NCBI GenBank assembly: GCA_023136775.1
Contig: JAGLQO010000003.1
Coordinates: 1-60,209, forward strand
Origin: Candidatus Pacearchaeota archaeon
GTDB lineage: Archaea; Nanobdellota; Nanobdellia; Pacearchaeales; GW2011-AR1
Length of the DNA: 60,209 bases
Direction of reading: 5' to 3'
A program made the position numbers and the translations under genes. The notes beneath the pieces were generated by a model, which was not told the origin of the DNA, ran no database searches, and was given only the letters and a program-made list of their open reading frames with translations. Positions within the stretch are counted from its first letter, which is position 1; the number at the start of each line of letters is the position of its first letter. Positions 72 through 60,209 of the stretch are shown here, piece after piece.

Positions 72-2675
72 ATGGAAGAAATTGACTTTTCAACAATTGA
101 AAAGAAATGGCAAGGAAAATGGGAGGCTGCTAAAATTTTTGAAGCGTCAGACCAAAGTGAAAAACCTAAGTATTATGTTTTGGAAATGTTTCCGTATCCA
201 TCGGGTTCTGGTCTTCACATGGGGCATGCTTGGAATTATACCATCGGGGATATTTTAGCTCGATATAAAATTATGAATGGATTTAATGTCATGCATCCAA
301 TGGGCTACGATGCGCTAGGGCTTCCAGCTGAAAACGCTGCTATAAAAGCTGGGACTCATCCTGAAGACTATAATAAGAAATCTATACAAAATTATATCAA
401 ACAACAACGTGAGTTGGGACTCTCTTATGATTGGTCTAGAATCCTTTCTACTGACGACCCAAAATATTACAGATGGGACCAATGGATTTTTTTAAAGATG
501 TTGGAAAAAGGTCTTGCTTACCAAAAAACTTCTGCGGTTAATTGGTGTCCTGAGTGTGAAACTGTTTTAGCGAATGAACAAGTTCAAGATGGAAAATGTT
601 GGAGACATGAAGATACTGATGTAAATATCAAACATTTGAAACAATGGTTTTTCAAAATCACAGAATATGCCGATGAGCTTTATGAAAATTTAGATAATAT
701 GGATTGGCCTGACAAGACTAAAGCTATGCAAAAAAACTGGATTGGAAAAAGCCATGGAACTGAAATTGATTTTGAAATCAATAATGAAACTTGGACAGTA
801 TTTACAACTAGACCAGATACAATTTTTGGAGTTACATTTGTTGTAGTTTCTGCTCAACATAAGAAGTTAATGGAACTAGTCACTGAAGAACGAACAAAAA
901 ACATTAAAGAATTTTTGAAAAACTTAGGTTCTATTAGTGAAAAGGAATTGGCGGATATGGAAAAACTTGGAGTTTTTACTGGAAGTTATGCAATCAATCC
1001 TGCTAATGGTGAAAAGATTCCTGTTTATGCTGGAAACTTTGTTGTCGCTGATTATGGATCGGGAATGGTTATGGCAGTTCCAGCTCACGATCAAAGAGAC
1101 TTTGAATTTGCTAAAAAATATGATATTGGAATTCAAGCGGTTGTTTGTCCTAGGGGAAAAGAAGATTTTGAGAATTTTGAATATGATATAGATTACTCTC
1201 GTAAAGATGGGAAAGAATATGTATTACAAGGAAATTCTTTAATTAGCAGTGGGATAAATGGGGAAACGACAGAAACTTATGATAACTATGCAGAAAGAAT
1301 AAGAAAGGAAATTTTCAATAATACCTTTCATTATAGGGCATGGAAAAGCCGGGGTGAGCTTATTCATTCTAAGCAATTTAATGGATTAGACTCTAAAAAA
1401 GCCAAAGAAAAAATAACAGAATGGTTAGTCAAAGAAGACAAGGGGAGAAAAGTTATTAATTTTAAACTTCGAGATTGGGGAATTAGTCGACAGAGATACT
1501 GGGGAACACCTATTCCAATTATCCACTGTGAAGATTGTGGGGCTGTTGCTGTGCCAGAAAATGAGCTTCCTGTAAAGCTACCTAGAGATGTTACATTCGG
1601 AGAAGGAAATCCTTTAGAGACTAATGCAGACTGGATAAACACAACTTGTCCTAAATGTGGGAATCCCGCTAGACGAGAAACTGACACTATGGATACTTTT
1701 GTAAATTCATCTTGGTATTTTTTAAGATATTGTGATCCTAATAATTCTGAAAAGATTTTTGATGAAGAAAAAGTAAAATACTGGAGTCCAGTTGACACTT
1801 ATATTGGTGGAGCTGAACACGCTTGCATGCATTTGATTTATTCAAGATTTTATGTTAAGTTCTTGAGAGATTTAGGAATGATTGATTTTGATGAACCTGC
1901 AAAAAAATTATTTCATCAAGGAATGCTTAACGGCGAAGGTGGAATTAAAATGAGTAAATCAAAAGGAAATGTAGTTTTACCCGAAACAGTTTCTGGCAAA
2001 TTTGGAATTGATACAGCTCGATTCTTTTTATCTGGATTAGCTTCGCCTGATAAAAATATTGATTGGGACGACAAGGGAATAATTGGTAGTGTAAAATTTG
2101 TAAGTAAAATTTTTAGGTATTTTGAGAATATTAAATTTGCAGACGACAATGAAAGTGTTTTATCTTTATTAAATCAAACAATAAAAAACGTAAGTGGATA
2201 TTATGACAATTTTGAATACCGAAAAGCGACGATTGAACTTCGTGAATTGTTTGATTTGATTGACAAAAACAAAGCGTCAAAAGAAACTCTTGGTAAATTT
2301 CTACAAATACTAAATCCAATTTGTCCACATATTACTGAAGAGCTTTGGGAAAAATTAGGAAATGATAATTTTATTTCGACAAGTGATTGGCCAAAAGCGG
2401 ATGAATCCAAAATTGTAAAAAAAGGTCAAAGTGGGGATTTGAACGATAAAGTTATTGAAAGTATAAAATCTATTATTGAAAAAGTCGAGGGAGATTTTTC
2501 CAAAATTTATATTTACATTATGCCATTTGAAATTTCCAAAATAGATTCTTCAAAAATTAGTGATGAGATTAAAAAAACTGTAGAAGTATTCGCAGTTAAT
2601 GATAAAGATAAGCACGACCCTCAAGGAAAAGCCAAGAAAGCAAAACCGGGGAAGCCCAGTATTTATTTAGAATAA
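72..2675 (+). CDS. leuS: Leucyl-tRNA synthetase
   Basis: 867-aa ORF. HIGH-type motif (SGSGLHMGHAWNY), KMSKS motif (IKMSKSKGN) and a long editing-domain insertion. Confidence 0.95.
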   Translation: MEEIDFSTIEKKWQGKWEAAKIFEASDQSEKPKYYVLEMFPYPSGSGLHMGHAWNYTIGDILARYKIMNGFNVMHPMGYDALGLPAENAAIKAGTHPEDYNKKSIQNYIKQQRELGLSYDWSRILSTDDPKYYRWDQWIFLKMLEKGLAYQKTSAVNWCPECETVLANEQVQDGKCWRHEDTDVNIKHLKQWFFKITEYADELYENLDNMDWPDKTKAMQKNWIGKSHGTEIDFEINNETWTVFTTRPDTIFGVTFVVVSAQHKKLMELVTEERTKNIKEFLKNLGSISEKELADMEKLGVFTGSYAINPANGEKIPVYAGNFVVADYGSGMVMAVPAHDQRDFEFAKKYDIGIQAVVCPRGKEDFENFEYDIDYSRKDGKEYVLQGNSLISSGINGETTETYDNYAERIRKEIFNNTFHYRAWKSRGELIHSKQFNGLDSKKAKEKITEWLVKEDKGRKVINFKLRDWGISRQRYWGTPIPIIHCEDCGAVAVPENELPVKLPRDVTFGEGNPLETNADWINTTCPKCGNPARRETDTMDTFVNSSWYFLRYCDPNNSEKIFDEEKVKYWSPVDTYIGGAEHACMHLIYSRFYVKFLRDLGMIDFDEPAKKLFHQGMLNGEGGIKMSKSKGNVVLPETVSGKFGIDTARFFLSGLASPDKNIDWDDKGIIGSVKFVSKIFRYFENIKFADDNESVLSLLNQTIKNVSGYYDNFEYRKATIELRELFDLIDKNKASKETLGKFLQILNPICPHITEELWEKLGNDNFISTSDWPKADESKIVKKGQSGDLNDKVIESIKSIIEKVEGDFSKIYIYIMPFEISKIDSSKISDEIKKTVEVFAVNDKDKHDPQGKAKKAKPGKPSIYLE

Positions 2676-4650: not shown

Positions 4651-4768
4651 CTGGAGCGTTAGCGATTAAATGGACAAGTCTTTCGAGCGGAATGAAATGG
4701 AGCGGTTATGAGTCGAATGAAGACGGAGTCGTAATGAGCGAATAAATATGAGAAACGAAGTTTCTCTA
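4651..4768 (-). repeat. Truncated, decayed long-form element (P4 hairpin plus 3' domain) immediately after the alaS stop
   Basis: Minus strand reads TAGAGAAACTTCGTTTCTCATATTTATTCGC...ACTTGTCCATTTAATCGCTAACGCTCCAG. This parallels copy B (AGGAGAACTTCGTTCTCATATTTTGCAGC...ACTTGGCTGTTCAATTGCGAAATAATTTTCGCTCCAAC). Confidence 0.55.
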
Positions 4769-6523
4769 AAGTAAAACTGCTTTTATTCTTCTTACACCTG
4801 CTGAACTTGATTCTTCTTTTTTAATCTTAAATCTTCCCATTTCGTCCGTGTTGTCTACGTGGGGTCCTGCACAAATTTCTTTTGAGAAATCTCCGATAGA
4901 ATAAACTTTTACTTTTTCAGAATATTTAGAATCGAAAATTCCTTCGGCTCCAGAAGCCTTTGCTTCGTCAACTGTCATTTCCTCCAACTTAACTTCCACT
5001 TCTTTTTGTATTTCTGCATTAACTAAATTCTCGACACTTATTTTTTCTTCTGATGTTAATTTTCTATCAAAGTTAAAATCAAACCTTAATCTTTCAGGTG
5101 TGATATTGGAGCCCTTCTGATGGATATTTTTATCTTTCAAAACAATTCGCAAAGCTTCACCCAACATATGACAAGCTGTATGAAGTTTTTTTGTTTCATC
5201 CGAATTATCAGCTAAACCACTTTTGAATTTTCCAGCTGAGGCAGTTCTTGACAATTCCTGATGTTTAGAAAGCTCTTCATTAAATCCCTTTTCGTCGACG
5301 CTAATTCCTTTTTCGTCGGCTAGTTCTTTAATTAATTCGATTGGGAATCCATAAGATTGGTAAAGTAAAAATGATTCTTTGGCATCAATTTTTTCATCAC
5401 TACACATTTTTTCAAATTCCTTTAATCCCTTATCAAGCGTCTTTTGAAATTTATCTTCTTCTTTCTTTAATTCCGATAAAATCTTTTCCTTGTTATTTGT
5501 TAAAATATCATAATCATCATAAAGTTCAATCACTACTTTTGAAATTTCAACCGTTGCGTCCATCTCCAAAATTGGAACGTCAATTTTTCTAAGACTTCTA
5601 ATTGCTCTTCTAATTAATCTTCTAAGGATGTATCCTTGCTCACTATTTCCAGGGACAACACCGTCGCCAATCATAAAAGTTGCGGCTTTTATGTGGTCTG
5701 CAACAATTCTCATCTCTCTTTCATTTCCAATATAAGATTTATTTGAGATAGATTCAATTTTTTCTATAATTGGTTTCCATACATCGATTAAATAATTATC
5801 TTCTAGACCATCCAGCGTAGTAATTATTCTTTCAATTCCTCCCCCAAAATCAATATTTTTTTGAGAGGATTCAGTATAGCTTCCATCTTTATTTTTAAAA
5901 TAAGCCATTAAAACATTGTTTCCAATCTCTACCCAATTAGAATCTTCGAGATTATATTTCTCTGGAGCTGGAATACCATTTGGCATCCAATAAAACATTT
6001 CAGTGTCGGTTCCGCATGGTCCCGTTTCTCCTCCAAGCTCCCACCAATTTTCAGACTTTGGTAAAAATGCAATTCTGTTTTCGCTAACGCCTAAACTTTT
6101 CCAAATATTTGCAGCTTCAACGTCACGCGGGGCATTATTATCTCCAGCAAAAACTGTAAAAGCTAATTTTCCCAATGGAATTTCTAAAACTTTAGTTAAA
6201 AATTCAAAAATATATTCAATTGCTTCTTTCTTAAAATAATCTCCAAGAGACCAATGTCCAAGCATTTCAAATAAGGTATGATGACAAGTATCTCCTACTT
6301 CTTCAATATCCACTGTCCTGACACATCTTTGAACATTAACTAAACGCTTTCCTTGAGGATGAGTTTGCTCTCCAGAAAAATATGGAATTAATGGTTGCAT
6401 TCCTGCGGTTGTAAATAAAACTGTTGGATCATTTTCAGGGACTAAAGACGCACTTCTAATTCTGACATGCCCTTTACTTTCAAAAAATCTCACGTACTTC
6501 TCGATTAATTCTTTCCTATCCAT
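4766..6523 (-). CDS. alaS: Alanyl-tRNA synthetase, short form (catalytic, tRNA-recognition and editing domains; no C-Ala domain)
   Basis: 585 aa. N-terminus FFESKGH...FTTAGMQP..., editing HxxxH (HTACHMLGEAL) and CAGPHV near the C-terminus. Confidence 0.9.
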   Translation of the reverse strand: MDRKELIEKYVRFFESKGHVRIRSASLVPENDPTVLFTTAGMQPLIPYFSGEQTHPQGKRLVNVQRCVRTVDIEEVGDTCHHTLFEMLGHWSLGDYFKKEAIEYIFEFLTKVLEIPLGKLAFTVFAGDNNAPRDVEAANIWKSLGVSENRIAFLPKSENWWELGGETGPCGTDTEMFYWMPNGIPAPEKYNLEDSNWVEIGNNVLMAYFKNKDGSYTESSQKNIDFGGGIERIITTLDGLEDNYLIDVWKPIIEKIESISNKSYIGNEREMRIVADHIKAATFMIGDGVVPGNSEQGYILRRLIRRAIRSLRKIDVPILEMDATVEISKVVIELYDDYDILTNNKEKILSELKKEEDKFQKTLDKGLKEFEKMCSDEKIDAKESFLLYQSYGFPIELIKELADEKGISVDEKGFNEELSKHQELSRTASAGKFKSGLADNSDETKKLHTACHMLGEALRIVLKDKNIHQKGSNITPERLRFDFNFDRKLTSEEKISVENLVNAEIQKEVEVKLEEMTVDEAKASGAEGIFDSKYSEKVKVYSIGDFSKEICAGPHVDNTDEMGRFKIKKEESSSAGVRRIKAVLL

Positions 6524-53875: not shown

Positions 53876-55309
53876 TTATTTTTTAGCAATTTTCTTTTGC
53901 TTCATCAAGTTTTCAATTGTACTAATTTCTACAAAACTTGCTCCGTGAGTTGGTCCGTAGTTTCCAGCTAATACTACGACTAAATCAGTTTTTTTGAATT
54001 CTTTTTTTGTTAATAAAGATTTCAAAGATAAATCAATAAAATGATCATGAGTTTTTGTTTTATCTAAATGAGATGCAGAAACTCCGTAAGATAAAGCCAA
54101 TTCTCTCATTACGTTATCGTTGTAACATTCTGCGAAAACAAATTTATTTCCTCTAAATGATGAAATATATCTTGCAGTTCTTCCAGTTTCTGTATCTGCA
54201 ACAATTGCTTTTACGGGTAATTCTAATGCTGCTTTAACTGCCATATTAGATAAGAATGCTGGGATTTCTTTTCCTACTGCTTTAACTGCGGTATCTTGAA
54301 TTTTATCTATCCTCTCCATTTCTACTTCTCTGGCAACCGTGGTCATTGTTTTAACGGCTTCAATAGGATACTTTCCGTAAGCCGTTTCTCCACTAAGCAT
54401 TATTGCATCAGTTCCAGAACGAATTGCATTTGCAATATCTGCAATCTCAGCTCTTGTTGCTCGAGGATTTTCAATCATATTATGAAGCATTTGTGTCGCA
54501 ACAATCACTGGTCTTTTTCTTGCTATACATTTTTTAATCATAGAATATTGAACCATTGGAATTTTTTCTGCGGCAACTTCTATTCCCAAATCTCCCCTAG
54601 CTACCATTATTCCATAAGCTACATCCAAAATTTCATCTAAATTGTCAACACCTTCTTGATTTTCAATCTTTGCAATAATTTTTGCGTGGCTATTATATTT
54701 ATCTAATATTTTTTGTACGGCTAGAACATCTTTCTTACTTCTAACAAATGAGTGAGCTATAAAATCAATTCCTATTTTTGCTGCAAATTCAATATAATTT
54801 CTGTCTTTTTTTGTTATTGATGGCAAGCGAATTGAAACACCAGGAATATTTACACTTTTTCTTCCTTTAATTGAAGAGGAATTCATAACCTTACAAACTA
54901 AAGCTCCCTTGGACTTGCTCATAACTTTGAATTCAATATCTCCATCATCAACTAAAATACTCTTTCCAACAGAAACATCTTTTACAATTCCTGAATATGA
55001 AACATAAATTGTATCTTTAGTATGATTTTTTTTAATATCTCCTTTAATCATGATTTTTTCACCTTTCTTAAAAAATCGTTCTGTTTCAAATTTATTTGTT
55101 CTAATTTCTGGACCTTTAGTGTCTAATAAAAGTGGAATTTTATCTGAAACTGCTCTAACATTTTTTACAACTCTTAGAGTATCTTCATGGGCTTGATGTG
55201 CTGTGTTTAATCTTACTACGTTCATTCCTTCGTTGTATAATTTTTGAATAAAATCCACGTCACATTTCAGGTCGGATATAGTCGCTACAATTTTTGTTTT
55301 CTTTATCAT
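53876..55309 (-). CDS. pyk: Pyruvate kinase
   Basis: KTKIVATISD, LDTKGPEIR, MVARGDLGIE and GETAYGKYP. ATG at 55309. Confidence 0.93.
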   Translation of the reverse strand: MIKKTKIVATISDLKCDVDFIQKLYNEGMNVVRLNTAHQAHEDTLRVVKNVRAVSDKIPLLLDTKGPEIRTNKFETERFFKKGEKIMIKGDIKKNHTKDTIYVSYSGIVKDVSVGKSILVDDGDIEFKVMSKSKGALVCKVMNSSSIKGRKSVNIPGVSIRLPSITKKDRNYIEFAAKIGIDFIAHSFVRSKKDVLAVQKILDKYNSHAKIIAKIENQEGVDNLDEILDVAYGIMVARGDLGIEVAAEKIPMVQYSMIKKCIARKRPVIVATQMLHNMIENPRATRAEIADIANAIRSGTDAIMLSGETAYGKYPIEAVKTMTTVAREVEMERIDKIQDTAVKAVGKEIPAFLSNMAVKAALELPVKAIVADTETGRTARYISSFRGNKFVFAECYNDNVMRELALSYGVSASHLDKTKTHDHFIDLSLKSLLTKKEFKKTDLVVVLAGNYGPTHGASFVEISTIENLMKQKKIAKK

Positions 55310-55380
55310 ATATAAAAAACCAAAAATTGATTTATAAAGCTTAGCACGAAAAATCTTGAGAAATAAACAACCCATCGTTC

Positions 55381-55900
55381 GCTGAGGCTCACTTCAAAGC
55401 TCGCTGCGGGATATTTCTAAACTCGGGACAATTTCAACTGCCCAACCTTCCGACCTTGATTCTCAACATATCTTTTAACATCATCTAGTCCCCGACCATC
55501 GCCAACAGTATCAATATGTCCACCATCGCTCCAGAATTCGCCACCCCACAGTTCTTCCTTCAGCTTCGGGAATTTTTTAAAAATCTGAATTGCCAAAATA
55601 CTTTTGCAAATTTGCATAATTCTTGACGGTGAATTCTTTGGAGCACTTTCAACAACAATATGAATATGATCATCTTCATGTCCCAATGCATCAAACCAAA
55701 GATAATATCTCTTGGAAATTCCACGACAAATTTCTTTCATAAAATCAAAAACGTCGTCGGTGATTAAATCCGGCCTATACTTTACAACGAAGACCATGTG
55801 ATATCGGATCCTATACGAACAATGACTAGCCTTTCTAACTTTCATAAAAAAACAAACTTCAAAACCTAGTTAAGCTTATCGCAGCAAGCTGCGGGGTATT
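55381..55900 (-). mobile_element. IS200-like element (tnpA only) with similar subterminal sequences at both ends
   Basis: Both flanks carry AATA(T/C)CCCGCAGC in direct orientation. The 5' flank forms CGCAGC-TT-GCTGCG. Confidence 0.7.
55417..55845 (-). CDS. tnpA: IS200/IS605-family Y1 (HUH) transposase
   Basis: 142 aa. YHMVFVVKYR, HUH motif DHIHIVV and catalytic-Tyr region VKRYVENQG. Confidence 0.9.
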   Translation of the reverse strand: MKVRKASHCSYRIRYHMVFVVKYRPDLITDDVFDFMKEICRGISKRYYLWFDALGHEDDHIHIVVESAPKNSPSRIMQICKSILAIQIFKKFPKLKEELWGGEFWSDGGHIDTVGDGRGLDDVKRYVENQGRKVGQLKLSRV

Positions 55901-56130
55901 CACCCAGTGAGAAATAATTTAAACTCTTAGTGCTTAGGGAAATTATGAAAACTAATTTAGAGAAAATTTTAATTAAAGAATTCTGCGAAAAACTACCTTT
56001 CAATTGGGCTCCGATTGAAAAGAATGGAATCTGTAGAATTCCAAATGATTACTGTATATATTGTAAAGAATTTTTTAAAATATAATTTACGAAAAATCAA
56101 ATATATACTTTAATCAATAAAAAATATAGT

Positions 56131-57153
56131 TTAATTTGATTCACTAAAAGCATTCAAAACAAATCTTGAATCGATAAGACCTTCTGCAAGAAATGTCTCA
56201 TCCGACTGCCCATGGTCTAACATGAATTCTGAAATGAATTCTGAAACTCTATATAAAGAAATATCACTGCTAGAATCACTCAGGGCCAATTTGTTTTCTT
56301 CTAAATTAAGCAGCTTAATTCCTCCAGAAGCTCCCATCAAATCCGACAAAGGAACACCAGTTCTGTTTGACATTAATGAATAAGCACCATTTTTATTTCC
56401 TGCTATAAAGTTATGAGCTCGAACCAAGGCATTGACTATTCCCTGAATATCCTCTTCTCTATCTTCTATAACATCCTTTTTAATGGTCAAAACGTCAACA
56501 ATAAATCCGGGTGCGTCCTTGGAACTTGCAATTAAATTATATCCACTTTCTACAGCCTTCGTTTTTATTGGTTCCCATGTATGCCCCGCATCTATTTCGC
56601 CATTTTCTAAAGCGTCAAGAACATTATAGGCAGAAACTTCTACAATTTCAACATCGCCTTCTGTTAAATTGTTTTTTTCAAGTAAATAAACCAAAAATCT
56701 ATGAGAGAAACCGTTCAAAAATGAAACCCCAACCTTCTTACCTTTCAATTCAAAAACAGAATGAATATCAGGACTTGCGACTATAACATCTCCTCCGTAC
56801 GAATAATCAAATATATAGACCACTCGAGAATCAAAATCAACTGTCCCATTTACAGAATATGGGGGATAAACTCCAGGGTACCCATCATAAGGAGAATCTT
56901 CTTTAATAACCTCTTCTCCTATAGTTTCACTATCAATTAATATATCAAAATTTACATCAACCCCTTCATCTTCAAAAAAACCATTCTCATAAGCGACATA
57001 TAAGGGAATATATCCAGCCCAGCTATCAACTATCAAATATATGGGGTCCTTATTAGGATGTGTAGTAGAACCAACTAAAAAAAACGTTCCAAAAATCAAT
57101 GAAACAACTATTAAAAACCAAACACAAAAAAATACAATAAAATGCTTCTTCAT
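56131..57153 (-). CDS. NMT1/SsuA-like ABC-type substrate-binding protein
   Basis: N-terminal anchor. LIVDSWAGYIPLYVAYENGFFEDEGVDV is typical of NitT/TauT-family binding proteins. Confidence 0.7.
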   Translation of the reverse strand: MKKHFIVFFCVWFLIVVSLIFGTFFLVGSTTHPNKDPIYLIVDSWAGYIPLYVAYENGFFEDEGVDVNFDILIDSETIGEEVIKEDSPYDGYPGVYPPYSVNGTVDFDSRVVYIFDYSYGGDVIVASPDIHSVFELKGKKVGVSFLNGFSHRFLVYLLEKNNLTEGDVEIVEVSAYNVLDALENGEIDAGHTWEPIKTKAVESGYNLIASSKDAPGFIVDVLTIKKDVIEDREEDIQGIVNALVRAHNFIAGNKNGAYSLMSNRTGVPLSDLMGASGGIKLLNLEENKLALSDSSSDISLYRVSEFISEFMLDHGQSDETFLAEGLIDSRFVLNAFSESN

Positions 57154-57200
57154 GTACTAATGTAGAAAAATAAAGTTATATAACAAACTACGAATATATT

Positions 57201-57800
57201 CTAAAGCTCAAGTTCCATTAGCGCACAAGAAGGTGTACTATTAATATCTTCAAAAACTTTTTCGCCATTATAAGAAAAATCTTTATAAAAAATTTCATTG
57301 ACTGTTTTGAATCCAAGCTTAGAAACAGCCTTACGAGAATATGGGGAAGTAGCTTCTAAAATAATTTTTCTATAGCCCACATTTTTTGCCAAATCAATAT
57401 TTCGAATAATCATCTCATGAGCTACTCCTTTATTCGCATAATCTAAAAGAACTCCAATATAAGAAAAATGTAAAACATTATCAGAAACATTATATCCTTC
57501 ATGCAACTCCCCCATAAGCTTTGAAATAGGAGTAAAAGAATCAACTAAAATATAATTACTAGGCTTATAATCCAAAAAATCATAGGCCAAAAGCGCTCCA
57601 ACTATCTTCTCGTCAATTGCGCAAAAAGACAAGTTCTCATCAATAGACCTATTAACTTCTCCATTTGCAAAAGAAACCCAATCATTAAAACTAATCCCAA
57701 GGGCAACACTCAATGAATCTTTGTTAAAAAAAGATTCTGCAATACAATTAATCGCGCCTTCGCAATCATTTCTACCAAGCAATTTATATTCTAAATCCAT
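57201..57800 (-). CDS. GNAT-family N-acetyltransferase
   Basis: Motif A region YIGVLLDYANKGVAHEMI...LEATSPYSRKAVSKLGF. The start overlaps the upstream stop (TAATG). Confidence 0.75.
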   Translation of the reverse strand: MDLEYKLLGRNDCEGAINCIAESFFNKDSLSVALGISFNDWVSFANGEVNRSIDENLSFCAIDEKIVGALLAYDFLDYKPSNYILVDSFTPISKLMGELHEGYNVSDNVLHFSYIGVLLDYANKGVAHEMIIRNIDLAKNVGYRKIILEATSPYSRKAVSKLGFKTVNEIFYKDFSYNGEKVFEDINSTPSCALMELEL

Positions 57801-58543
57801 TATACTTTTCCAATTTCATCTTGCAAATTCTTTGGCAAATGAACATATGGACACATAACTAAAGCCATCCCAATTTCATTAAAACCAATTTCTATTTCTT
57901 TTTTTGAGATATAAATTTTCTCAACATTAATCTTTTGCATGTCAGCAACTTCGAGAGAACTCATGACCGCCTTTTCAAAATAATCGTCATCTATATTTTC
58001 CACAAGTCCAACGTCTTCCATTAACAAAAATGGATTAATTGCCTTGTCTTTTGGAACACTAATAGACAAAGCAGAATAAATACTGCTGCCCTCTTTATCA
58101 TAAGACAAACTCTTCATTGCACAAGGAACCATAGAACCAGGGAAGAATGGATAATTGGGATTTTTAATAGTTCCGAGTATACTGGAAGTAACTTCTAGTA
58201 GAGGATCCAAGCTGCAAATCTCAATACCTTCAATGCTATCAATTACCTGATCTTCTTTTTTAAAAAAATCATATCCTGCCAATCTTCCATTGGGGCCGAT
58301 AAAAGAAGAAACGCCAATCGCATTTATTTTTCCAGCATTGGCGAAACTAACTTGAGCAGCATCAAATGCCGCTATTTCTTCTAATTTTTGTGGGCGTCCT
58401 TTTTTAGTAATTGATGCAACTCCGAGATAAGGCAAAACAACATATCTTCCATTGGGGTTATCTAAAAATCCAGAACAATGTCCGTCATGACTTGAAAAAT
58501 AAGAATCGTCAAGCTCTCTACCTTTAATGAAATCACCTTTCAT
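57800..58543 (-). CDS. hdcA: Pyruvoyl-dependent histidine decarboxylase-like proenzyme
   Basis: NAIGVSS|FIGPNGRLAGYDFF resembles the Lactobacillus HdcA self-cleavage site (TASS|FTGVQGRVIGYDIL). PGSMVPCAMKS and MCPYVHLP also match from memory. Confidence 0.65.
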   Translation of the reverse strand: MKGDFIKGRELDDSYFSSHDGHCSGFLDNPNGRYVVLPYLGVASITKKGRPQKLEEIAAFDAAQVSFANAGKINAIGVSSFIGPNGRLAGYDFFKKEDQVIDSIEGIEICSLDPLLEVTSSILGTIKNPNYPFFPGSMVPCAMKSLSYDKEGSSIYSALSISVPKDKAINPFLLMEDVGLVENIDDDYFEKAVMSSLEVADMQKINVEKIYISKKEIEIGFNEIGMALVMCPYVHLPKNLQDEIGKV

Positions 58544-58625
58544 ATAGAATAAACATTATGTTTTTTTATAAATGTAGAGGTAAATCCTTTGGATTTACGG
58601 TAGGGGTAATTCTGCGGAATTTACT

Positions 58626-58708
58626 GGTCTGGGGTGGCGGGTCTGGGGTGGCGGGTCTGGGGTGGCGGGTCTGGGGTAGAAAACATTGTTGCGTCGTTTG
58701 TCGACGCT
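58626..58708 (+). repeat. R-motif copy 3: 14-mer GGTCTGGGGTGGCG x3.7 plus CATTGTTGCGTCGTTTGTCGACGCT
   Basis: Perfect tandem 14-mers at 58626-58677. The conserved motif is at 58684-58708. Confidence 0.85.
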
Positions 58709-58722
58709 TTTGTTTTTGTGTT

Positions 58723-60159
58723 TTAATTCCTAAATATTCTGTCCATTGCGTCTTTTCTTTTTTCTTCGCCTAAGCATTTTTGACAAACTTTTGAACCGTC
58801 AATTGCTATTCCGAAATATTTTTCTTGGGTCATTCCGTGACATCTTAGACATGCTCTTAAACAATTTCTGCATCTTTCGTCACCAGTTACACAATCTTTT
58901 CGGAGGTGTTCTTTACAAATTGATTTGCCGCAACCATGACACACTATAAAGCAACTTTTACAAAGTGACTTCCCACAAATAGAACAACTTCGCTTTAAAC
59001 AATTCTTACAAAAAGTTTTCCCACAGTCGTTGCAAGTACTCAAACAATCATCACAACTAATATGTCCAGCAGAACAAAGATTTATTTTTGATATTTCTTT
59101 CCCGCAACTTTCGCAATTTAATTTGTTTAAAGTTTTTGTCAAGGGGTCATAGTTCATTTCTATAAATCTTCCAGAAGAATCACCTTTTAGAAATAGGTTA
59201 AAACTGAAAACTGGGTAGTAAATTATCGTCGTGTTTGCGAGTTTATTGTCGACGCTTAAACTGTGTTTATGTATTGCGTCTTTAATTGTAAATTCTTTTT
59301 CTTTTAGGACTCTAACCCGAGCATCGTCATCACCTATTTTTATTAGAGATTTTTTTAATCTGTCTAATTTAGTTCTTAGGTTCTCAATTTCTTCTTGAGG
59401 GGCAGTTCTTAAAGATAATTCTGTTTTTTTTACTTTTTCTAACTGGGTTGCTAAATCTGTCCCTAGCTCCCTAATCAACTTATCATAATGTATATTAATT
59501 CTTGCTATTTCTTCTTCTGCCTTTTTCTCTAAATTTTCTCCTATCTCCGCTGTCTTCTTATTTAATATTTCTTTTAATATTTCTTTTGCCGTCTTGTAAT
59601 CTTTTTTTATATGATTACTTGATGCTTTGTCACTTTCGCCCTCTGTAACTGTATACCCGCTAAGGTCTCCGTTTACAATTTTTCCGTTATGAATATAGAT
59701 TTCGTTTATAATTTGTTCTGATTCGTTCATATACCTGAAAGTTGTTACGAACGTGAATCTTGAAAAGAAATTATTCCTGTGCCTTTTTTCTAGATTATCT
59801 ATTTCACAATTTTCTAAACTAATAGCTGATTTAATTTCTTTTACTGGGTCTACATCAAAATCTATTTTCAGTAGAGTTGTTTTTCCTGTACCTGATAAAT
59901 ATTTTGTCATAGTGGTAAACATTAAACTTCCTTTTCCTACAAAATGATTTACCCCTGGAGTTGTGAAATTTATTTTGTAAGGCGGGGATGTTCCCAATAA
60001 ATCTTCAAAACTTTTTGGAACATTTTCAACTATTAAAAATTCTCCAACTTTAGAAAGTTTACATTTTAAATTTTGGAAAAATTTGATTGTGAAATCCTCT
60101 ATTTGCTCTGTCATGAGAAATTTGGGGGAAATTCGTTTAAGAATATTGTTGTAGGCCAC
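58723..60159 (-). CDS. Hypothetical protein with a coiled-coil middle and a C-terminal array of about 12 CxxC pairs
   Basis: 478 aa. C-terminal CESCG..CDDC..CNDCG..CKNC..CSICG..CKSC..CHGCG..CKEH..CRNC..CLRCH..CQKC. Confidence 0.6.
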   Translation of the reverse strand: MAYNNILKRISPKFLMTEQIEDFTIKFFQNLKCKLSKVGEFLIVENVPKSFEDLLGTSPPYKINFTTPGVNHFVGKGSLMFTTMTKYLSGTGKTTLLKIDFDVDPVKEIKSAISLENCEIDNLEKRHRNNFFSRFTFVTTFRYMNESEQIINEIYIHNGKIVNGDLSGYTVTEGESDKASSNHIKKDYKTAKEILKEILNKKTAEIGENLEKKAEEEIARINIHYDKLIRELGTDLATQLEKVKKTELSLRTAPQEEIENLRTKLDRLKKSLIKIGDDDARVRVLKEKEFTIKDAIHKHSLSVDNKLANTTIIYYPVFSFNLFLKGDSSGRFIEMNYDPLTKTLNKLNCESCGKEISKINLCSAGHISCDDCLSTCNDCGKTFCKNCLKRSCSICGKSLCKSCFIVCHGCGKSICKEHLRKDCVTGDERCRNCLRACLRCHGMTQEKYFGIAIDGSKVCQKCLGEEKRKDAMDRIFRN

Positions 60160-60209
60160 TTTTTTAGAAAAAGCCCCCTGGGGTAAAAATCAATTAGATT
60201 TAGTCTAAA

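Follow-up and report, generated by a model that had tools for sequence, protein, structure and literature searches.

A pyruvoyl-dependent decarboxylase linked to a predicted amine N-acetyltransferase and an orphan solute-binding protein: an accessory gene cluster of apparent bacterial ancestry in a DPANN-type archaeon

Background

Pyruvoyl-dependent decarboxylases of one common fold are known in two roles, histamine-linked acid resistance in bacteria and the supply of agmatine in archaea. The first is typified by the histidine decarboxylase (HDC) HdcA of Lactobacillus 30a (PDB: 1PYA/1HQ6; PF02329; TIGR00541), a protein of ~310 residues with an 81-residue beta chain, and the second by the arginine decarboxylase PvlArgDC (PdaD) of Methanocaldococcus jannaschii (PDB: 1MT1/1N2M; PF01862), a proenzyme of ~165 residues with a beta chain of ~52 residues. 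Here we describe a cluster of three genes from a Candidatus Pacearchaeota archaeon (assembly GCA_023136775.1, contig JAGLQO010000003.1; the whole stretch of 60,209 nucleotides that was analysed is called the window below) that fits neither of these roles. It codes for a 247-residue protein of the same superfamily, a predicted amine N-acetyltransferase of the GNAT fold and a sensory-type solute-binding protein (SBP), which together make up a third arrangement for such decarboxylases.

With HdcA the window protein shares the superfamily, the fold, the position of the Ser-Ser cleavage site and a beta chain of about 80 residues (79 predicted here), but it is considerably shorter, belongs to a separate and well-separated clade, is encoded by an archaeon and has no hdcP, hdcB or hisRS for neighbors. 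With PvlArgDC it has in common the fold and the set of Asp, Asn, Ser-Ser and Glu residues, as well as a Phe and a Leu-Met-Glu stretch of the pocket, but both the proenzyme and the beta chain are much longer than those of the arginine decarboxylase. A further system that bears comparison is the bacterial cassette described below, in whose clade the window decarboxylase is nested; the window differs from it in the absence of a linked kinase, the presence of an orphan SBP and the archaeal host. A literature search found no account of this non-canonical HDC-like clade or of a microbial pathway that joins an HDC to an acetyltransferase.

Results and discussion

A pyruvoyl-dependent decarboxylase outside the canonical families

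An earlier sequence-only reading of the window had called three open reading frames on its minus strand a pyruvoyl-type histidine decarboxylase, a translationally coupled GNAT acetyltransferase and an orphan binding protein. We recover all three frames with the same boundaries (Table 1), and the peptide blocks that had suggested the first assignment (the block around the Ser-Ser pair, PGSMVPCAMKS, SALSISVPKDK and MCPYVHLP) are all present in the translation. Its placement among pyruvoyl-type proenzymes is borne out by profile searches: the HDC profile (PF02329) matches residues 10-239 over profile positions 7-267 of 294 with 66.5 bits (E=2.8e-18; gathering score 25), and the PvlArgDC profile (PF01862) also scores above its Pfam cut-off (35.7 bits), matching the C-terminal half of the protein only. 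Among solved structures the HDC alpha chain (1hq6_B) is recovered with E=6.5e-5; a search of the PDB with the N-terminal 83 residues alone gave no match. An AlphaFold (AF2) model built on the family alignment has a mean confidence (pLDDT) of 95.5, and a Foldseek search with this model recovers PvlArgDC and HDC only, the former as the proenzyme (2qqd, 1n2m; E~1e-11, 17% identity, template modeling (TM) score on the target 0.72-0.79) and the latter as the alpha chain (E=4e-9, 26% identity).

Residues were mapped on a 124-sequence alignment, with the numbering anchored via a canonical HdcA member (P0135) that shares ~90% identity with the Lactobacillus 30a protein of known structure. This comparison showed that: 1) Ser79-Ser80 of the window protein aligns with the cleavage site Ser81-Ser82; the pair is invariant in seven close homologues and its second serine is kept in 123 of the 124 members of the wider family. 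2) Asn74, Lys144 and Glu176 are equivalent to the catalytic residues Asn76, Lys155 and Glu197, and Asp177, Asp61 and Ile57 to Asp198, Asp63 and Ile59; all of these, like the serine pair, are invariant across the 7-member clade to which the protein belongs. 3) Phe60, Leu174 and Met175 take the place of Tyr62, Phe195 and Val196 and are the residues that the M. jannaschii arginine decarboxylase has there. 4) Glu66 corresponds to Gln64, a position that is either Gln or Glu across the clade. Glu197 and Glu66 of HDC and Glu109 of PvlArgDC have been assigned to catalysis and cleavage by mutagenesis, according to references cited in PMC2720952. Judged by its sequence, then, the window protein is a member of the superfamily with intact catalytic residues, as the sequence-only reading had held, and cleavage between Ser79 and Ser80 would yield a beta chain of 79 and an alpha chain of 168 residues, with Ser80 converted to the pyruvoyl group.

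The name histidine decarboxylase, in contrast, is not upheld. The protein scores 60.3 bits with the HdcA equivalog model (TIGR00541, EC 4.1.1.22), against a cut-off of 346.65, and 40.4 bits with the PvlArgDC equivalog model (TIGR00286), against a cut-off of 106.95 and with residues 133-215 matched; the canonical HdcA member used for numbering scores E=3e-175. A published criterion for HdcA (PMC8465708) asks for a PF02329 match with E<=1e-40 and, no more than three genes away, an amino-acid antiporter, whereas the E-value here is the one given above and the neighbors are the acetyltransferase, the SBP, an IS200 element and a cysteine-rich protein. The protein has the Pfam domain and the catalytic residues but falls short of the HdcA family by equivalog score, by the published criterion and by its place in the trees described below, and the name is not established for it. 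Hence, matches to PF02329 should not be annotated as histidine decarboxylases on that basis.

The linked acetyltransferase

The stop codon of the decarboxylase gene overlaps the start codon of the second gene by one base (TAATG, 57802-57798), as had been noted in the sequence-only reading. Pfam assigns the second protein to the GNAT fold only weakly. Its best match among solved sequences is A654L of the chlorella virus PBCV-1 (3qb8_A; E=8.6e-12 over the 175 residues 15-190), followed by arylalkylamine, dopamine, polyamine and agmatine N-acetyltransferases of mosquito, beetle and fly. PBCV-1 is reported to encode a polyamine N-acetyltransferase (PMC9992855), and the title of PDB entry 3qb8 gives the A654L open reading frame as such an enzyme. 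These proteins, A654L and the insect arylalkylamine N-acetyltransferase (AANAT), dopamine and agmatine enzymes, have ~200 residues like the window protein and are 17-24% identical to it, and the EATSPYS block of the window protein aligns with the DATGAFS block of AANAT. The confident AF2 model superimposes on 3qb8_A with TM scores of 0.92/0.93 and a root mean square deviation of 1.8 Å, and almost all of the next ~20 structural matches are acyltransferases of small amines. At the place of the acetyl-CoA-binding motif A (R/Q-x-x-G-x-G/A) the window protein has N-K-G-V-A, of which the alanine, unlike the glycine, is invariant among the homologues. On the combined showing of sequence and model the second gene is predicted to code for an amine N-acetyltransferase of the A654L/insect AANAT type.

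The family is extremely small, with four proteins found in 5.8 billion, and always occurs with the decarboxylase. Three of these proteins are found on contigs of 3157, 4035 and 7105 nt, and contigs of just these sizes carry the decarboxylase homologues P0007, P0004 and P0006, respectively; linkage was deduced from these identical sizes and was read directly in a metagenomic contig, L005, in which the two genes overlap by 8 nt. The pair is therefore conserved in every relative with enough contig to check.

Bacterial relatives and ancestry of the decarboxylase

Close relatives of the decarboxylase are likewise few: eight proteins in 5.8 billion, at 57-82% identity. A HMMER profile search of 1.84 billion representatives extended the family to 215 clusters, mostly of 260-295 residues and with a conserved V-S-S-F-C-G-P motif, and a degenerate DNA pattern for this motif picked out 76 loci in GTDB species genomes, of which 63 are true members, all of them bacterial. 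Many belong to the candidate phyla radiation (CPR, or Patescibacteria), others to Myxococcota, Acidobacteriota, Actinomycetota and Gammaproteobacteria. In trees of 184 rows (FastTree) and 47 rows (IQ-TREE, LG+C20) the clade of the window protein receives 99-100% support on a long stem (0.97), and a Magasanikbacteria sequence (P0009/L051) is its sister with 99% support in both. The two lie inside a mostly bacterial 40-row clade (99%), with canonical HdcA (P0135, P0124) outside it and separated from the window protein by long, well-supported branches.

A search of 36 genomes of the same genus found the gene in none, and no HDC-like gene turned up when 400 high-quality genomes, representing 280 genera of the host phylum, were searched. 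In one congener (G015) the 478-residue protein gene that precedes the cluster here adjoins the pyruvate kinase gene that follows it, with ~210 nt and nothing else between the two, and further congeners differ again in what follows the 478-residue protein gene. The GC content of the block (0.335) is close to that of the genome (0.328) and gives no island signature. The nesting in the tree, the absence from congeners and phylum, the closed gap in G015 and the matching GC content together support the view that the block is accessory, that its ancestry is bacterial and probably CPR, and that it did not come in freshly from a donor with another base composition; the bacterial acquisition proposed in the sequence-only reading accords with this. 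The archaeal clade differs from its relatives at six conserved positions only, three of which have also changed in the Magasanikbacteria sister; hence we see no sign of a change of substrate after transfer, and the archaeal enzyme probably keeps the substrate of the bacterial clade, as far as alignment can tell. The L005 contig carries the decarboxylase-GNAT pair at 59% identity together with a gene 47-58% identical to genes of this archaeon, so its host is probably a related archaeon. In G015, two open reading frames of 244 and 201 residues that precede an SBP homologue were considered as a decarboxylase and a GNAT, but the sizes agree by coincidence: they have no Pfam match, BLASTP gives E=0.58, hhalign a probability of 1%, and their features are like those of radical-SAM proteins.

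The HDC-like gene of the bacterial loci has a gene for a HisKA_7TM-GAF-HisKA-HATPase kinase after it (33 loci) and one for an unannotated, GNAT-like protein of 230-280 residues before it (29 loci). This three-gene unit (L006-L081; e.g. L028:2140-5916, L016:3752-7871 and L051:5064-7999) is found chiefly in CPR bacteria, and the four other bacterial groups named above have it as well; the Magasanikbacteria sister of the window clade keeps it. Neither the HisKA_7TM kinase nor the upstream acyltransferase of bacterial type adjoins the decarboxylase gene in the window. The profile of the upstream family makes weak matches to acetyltransferases in the PDB, and its comparison with the window GNAT family gives an hhalign probability of 70% (E=4e-5) over 145 columns that span the GNAT core, so the two are remotely related; the bacterial gene lies upstream of the decarboxylase gene, whereas the window gene, of A654L/AANAT type, lies downstream. 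In both lineages the decarboxylase thus appears to be teamed with a GNAT-fold enzyme and an extracytoplasmic sensing-type protein, the partners not being orthologous, and the block is an archaeal offshoot of the bacterial cassette.

An orphan solute-binding protein

The third protein scores above the cut-offs of NMT1 (63.1 bits) and NMT1_2 (52.1 bits) and below that of SsuA_fam (77.6 bits), and its best solved relatives are TauA (6ssy, E=1.9e-7) and SsuA, with which it shares the NMT1/NMT1_2 fold. It differs from these importer components in being anchored by an N-terminal membrane helix and in having no permease or ATPase to work with: the genome, which is 87.5% complete, contains no BPD_transp_1 match, and no second clear NMT1 protein. 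For the assembled 87.5% the SBP is therefore an orphan, as the sequence-only reading had it. The 4035-nt contig that carries a decarboxylase (P0004) and a GNAT homologue (P0158) also carries a homologue of the SBP with 61% identity (P0163), so that the three-gene layout recurs at least once.

Other homologues, from genomes of the phylum, stand among sensor proteins: one is translationally coupled between two dCache_1 proteins (G011), another has a dCache_1-HAMP protein on one side and a PAS protein on the other (G251), and a third is followed by a HAMP-PAS protein (G406); the more distant ones of G187 and G414, at 27-30% identity, belong to permease-ATPase operons. The genome at hand has nine dCache_1 matches, three HAMP matches and at least one sensor kinase. 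Given the absence of BPD_transp_1 from the genome, the dCache, HAMP and PAS neighbors of the nearest homologues and the wealth of dCache proteins, the SBP is most likely an extracellular receptor-type protein rather than a component of an importer, and this is the weakest step of our argument. Sensors that depend on an SBP and work without a transporter are known in LuxP-LuxQ and TorT-TorS, and by analogy with LuxP and TorT the window SBP likewise appears to be transporter-independent.

The dCache and HAMP matches of the genome cluster on a few contigs (G000 C36:34051-39371, C20:6650-10974, C13 and C4; L123-L133). The dCache pair that encloses an SBP gene in G011 has a matching pair on C36, separated by a gap of only ~600 nt and without an SBP. 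In L005 the gene beside the decarboxylase-GNAT pair (L005:3-482) is of a family whose members in this genome directly adjoin the dCache clusters (G000 C36:40099-41046 and C20:5618-6040).

A proposed pathway and its alternatives

We consider it probable, though some way short of certain, that the cluster is an accessory block in a DPANN-type archaeon for the conversion of an amino acid to an amine and further to an N-acetylamine, and that it also provides a surface binding protein. In the first step the 247-residue proenzyme would cleave itself at Ser79-Ser80, as the chemistry of the family suggests, and the pyruvoyl group formed from Ser80 would react with an amino acid at its alpha-amino group to give a Schiff base, after which the carboxyl group would be lost with Glu176 as the proton donor. 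Asp61 and the new C-terminus at Ser79 may hold a side chain that is cationic or donates hydrogen bonds; histidine would be the leading single candidate for the substrate, with arginine, ornithine and lysine as further candidates. In the second step the coupled GNAT would acetylate the primary amine formed in the first, with acetyl-CoA as the donor, and the product would be a neutral N-acetylamine. Decarboxylation is placed before acetylation because a pyruvoyl enzyme needs a free alpha-amino group, the exception being an acetyl group on a side-chain amine. In the third and least secure step the anchored SBP, instead of serving an importer, would most likely be a receptor that binds the product or its precursor outside the cell. 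The decarboxylase itself would have come from a bacterial, largely CPR, lineage, its acyltransferase and 7TM kinase partners having been replaced in the archaeal lineage. The sequence-only reading had offered a route from histidine over histamine to N-acetylhistamine or a related amine pathway; the wider half of this remains defensible and the histidine label does not.

Several points weigh against this proposal. The substrate cannot be read from the kept residues as aligned, because those of the pocket are also found in the arginine decarboxylase branch or throughout the non-canonical clade, and activity and self-cleavage are predictions that we draw from the family. The identity of the GNAT leans on the agreement of model and sequence result, because its alignment holds five sequences and one of five AF2 models was confident; moreover, the glycine of motif A is Asn or Arg in two of its homologues. 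The SBP accompanies the pair on one other contig only, its homologues beside sensor genes are just 31-39% identical to it, and no transducer adjoins it in the window. With regard to ancestry, the equal GC content means that the transfer was not recent or took place via other low-GC organisms, and among six metagenomic homologues an archaeal host is indicated, indirectly, for L005 alone.

Were the enzyme a true histidine decarboxylase, the pathway would be the special case that leads over histamine to N-acetylhistamine. This is suggested by the HDC profile, which scores above that of PvlArgDC and over the full length, by the closeness of the beta chain to that of HDC and the higher identity to the HDC alpha chain than to PvlArgDC, and by the retention of the equivalents of the imidazole-binding Asp63 and Ser81 and of Ile59. 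Some insect AANAT-like enzymes acetylate histamine. The distance from the HdcA equivalog cut-off, the result with the published criterion and the long branches that lead away from HdcA speak otherwise, as do the missing hdcP, hdcB and hisRS and the replacement of Tyr62, Phe195, Val196 and Glu66, the first three by PvlArgDC residues; in addition, pyruvoyl decarboxylases are known to switch substrates (PMC9992855). We therefore regard histidine as a tentative and on balance doubtful choice. That arginine, ornithine or lysine is decarboxylated and the resulting agmatine, putrescine or cadaverine acetylated for homeostasis or detoxification is also rather unlikely. The closest solved relative of the GNAT is indeed a polyamine acetyltransferase, agmatine and polyamine enzymes are among its matches, the decarboxylase passes the Pfam cut-off of PvlArgDC, one database names a homologue PvlArgDC, and the pocket with Phe60 and Leu174-Met175-Glu176 is like that of PvlArgDC. 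Yet the equivalog score is far below its cut-off, the PvlArgDC profile covers only the C-terminal half, and absence of the gene from 36 congeners argues against a housekeeping function. A pyridoxal phosphate (PLP)-dependent decarboxylase of Orn/Arg type is encoded directly beside deoxyhypusine synthase (G000 C19:26681-28287; L098, L099) and would already meet the housekeeping need for polyamine; the two could form a compact module supplying polyamine for the modification of aIF5A. No TiaS_FLD domain was matched in the genome, which leaves an agmatine supply for tRNA modification without an anchor. Since the PLP-dependent decarboxylase is present and the pyruvoyl gene is missing from congeners, a housekeeping arginine decarboxylase is unlikely.

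The flanking of the bacterial relatives by a HisKA_7TM-GAF kinase and a GNAT-like protein, the sensor neighborhoods of the nearest SBP homologues, the many dCache proteins of the genome and the dCache-associated neighbor of the pair in L005 all point towards signaling, in which the N-acetylamine would be a diffusible signal that the cell both makes and senses, with the SBP and dCache/HAMP proteins as the receptor in place of the 7TM kinase. This is guilt by association throughout, with neither an adjoining transducer nor more than one other contig that joins the SBP to the pair, and we hold it to be unlikely. Quite improbable is the full conjunction in which DPANN archaea captured a CPR decarboxylase and re-paired it with an AANAT-like GNAT and an SBP feeding dCache/HAMP proteins, so that an N-acetylamine is made and sensed; if true, it would be a first candidate for a chemical communication system in DPANN archaea, with a signaling chemistry common to both groups of ultra-small symbionts. 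The block might instead be functionless cargo of a mobile, IS-associated island, or a chimera of assembly or binning: a multi-copy IS200 element adjoins it, the region is variable in the genus, and short contigs from three samples break at the IS200 element and at a tandem repeat, so that the outer junctions rest on the window contig itself. Nevertheless, the catalytic residues are invariant in homologues that are 57-82% identical and all frames are intact, which makes cargo very improbable; and in three further samples the depth of the block equals that of the flanking core genes, one short contig from a further sample spans the SBP, GNAT and decarboxylase genes with zero differences, archaeal core genes flank the block on both sides within one 60-kb contig and its GC content is that of the genome. 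Hence, an assembly chimera is unlikely, and we give this whole class of explanations very low odds. A classical HdcA system, generating acid resistance or proton-motive force by histidine/histamine exchange, has little beyond the name of the Pfam family to recommend it and is barely credible: neither an antiporter nor hdcB or hisRS is found beside the decarboxylase gene, the sole AA_permease_2 match of the genome is weak (31.8 bits) and unlinked (contig C33), and acetylation of the amine would take away the exchange substrate.

If the proposed conversion of an amino acid to an N-acetylamine is confirmed, it would give a handle on the substrate of a sizeable uncharacterised clade (the 215 representative clusters), a clear case of gene flow between two lineages of ultra-small symbionts, and a testable candidate for small-molecule production, possibly for signaling, in DPANN archaea.

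Organization of the locus

Table 1. Features of the locus in order of transcription; coordinates are those of the window
Feature	Coordinates	Strand	Remarks
Cys-rich protein, 478 aa	58723-60159	minus	precedes the cluster
TATA-like box TTTATAAAAAAA	58561-58572	minus	centre ~24 nt before the decarboxylase ATG; read from sequence
Pyruvoyl-dependent amino-acid decarboxylase proenzyme, 247 aa	57800-58543	minus	HDC/PvlArgDC superfamily by sequence, non-canonical clade
Predicted self-cleavage site, codons of Ser79-Ser80	58304-58309	minus	aligns with Ser81-Ser82 of Lactobacillus 30a HDC
Predicted amine N-acetyltransferase (GNAT), 199 aa	57201-57800	minus	PBCV-1 A654L/insect AANAT type
Second TATA-like box TTATATAA	57176-57183	minus	~26 nt before the SBP start, in a 47-nt spacer
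NitT/TauT-family SBP, 340 aa	56131-57153	minus	N-terminal transmembrane helix; without cognate ABC permease
IS200-type element	55362-55917	minus	Y1 transposase 55417-55845 (Y1_Tnp, 108 bits); directly downstream of the cluster
Pyruvate kinase	53876-55375	minus	follows the IS200-type element

The TATA-like box before the decarboxylase gene may, in DNA of 33% GC, weakly suggest an archaeal promoter with a leaderless or near-leaderless transcript, and a box of similar kind lies 5' of the decarboxylase homologue in L005. With the same caution as to base composition, the second box, whose spacing would likewise suit a leaderless transcript, is a possible internal promoter before the SBP gene. A scan for sigma-70 promoters gave no excess over shuffled controls, the model not being relevant to an archaeon, and Rfam has no match within 55000-60209. 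The AT-rich DNA between the 478-residue protein gene and the decarboxylase promoter contains a 14-nt tandem repeat of ~3.5 copies (58630-58708), G-rich if read on the plus strand and C-rich if read on that of the genes; after the repeat units come a GC-rich hairpin (58691-58707) and a T-run. Short-read contigs break in this stretch of DNA. In many congeners the matches to the 478-residue protein (L089-L096) show one in-frame TGA or TAA, which may reflect alignments that overrun the end of the gene.

The IS200 element had been described as immediately upstream of the cluster. It does adjoin the cluster, but lies downstream of it in the direction of transcription and upstream only in plus-strand coordinates. 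It is 556 nt long and present in three copies that are 95-100% identical, the others being G000 C24:10757-11312 (99%) and G000 C20:15807-16358 (95%). In other samples it is covered at 2-4x higher depth, and loose ends fall at 55880 and 55917; because of the near-identical copies and this excess depth we conclude that the element was recently active.

The host genome

The archaeon comes from cold-seep sediment, and its DNA is found in the metagenomes of one study; the genome amounts to 1.2 Mb in 38 contigs. It encodes ribosomal protein L21e, a family that matched archaeal controls only, and the window further codes for a CDC48 ATPase, a family-B DNA polymerase, NreA and a PGF-pre-PGF protein. 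The genomes of relatives measure 0.5-1.9 Mb, and more distant SBP homologues are labelled Pacearchaeota. Owing to these archaeal markers, the small genomes of the relatives and the labels of the SBP homologues, the host is a DPANN-type archaeon, in keeping with the archaeal origin first assumed for this DNA. The leucyl- and alanyl-tRNA synthetases encoded in the window (72-2675 and 4766-6523) score as bacterial types, the former reaching 909 bits with leuS_bact and the latter 738 bits with PRK01584, a short form, both far above the archaeal models, and are further bacterial-type genes of the same archaeal genome.

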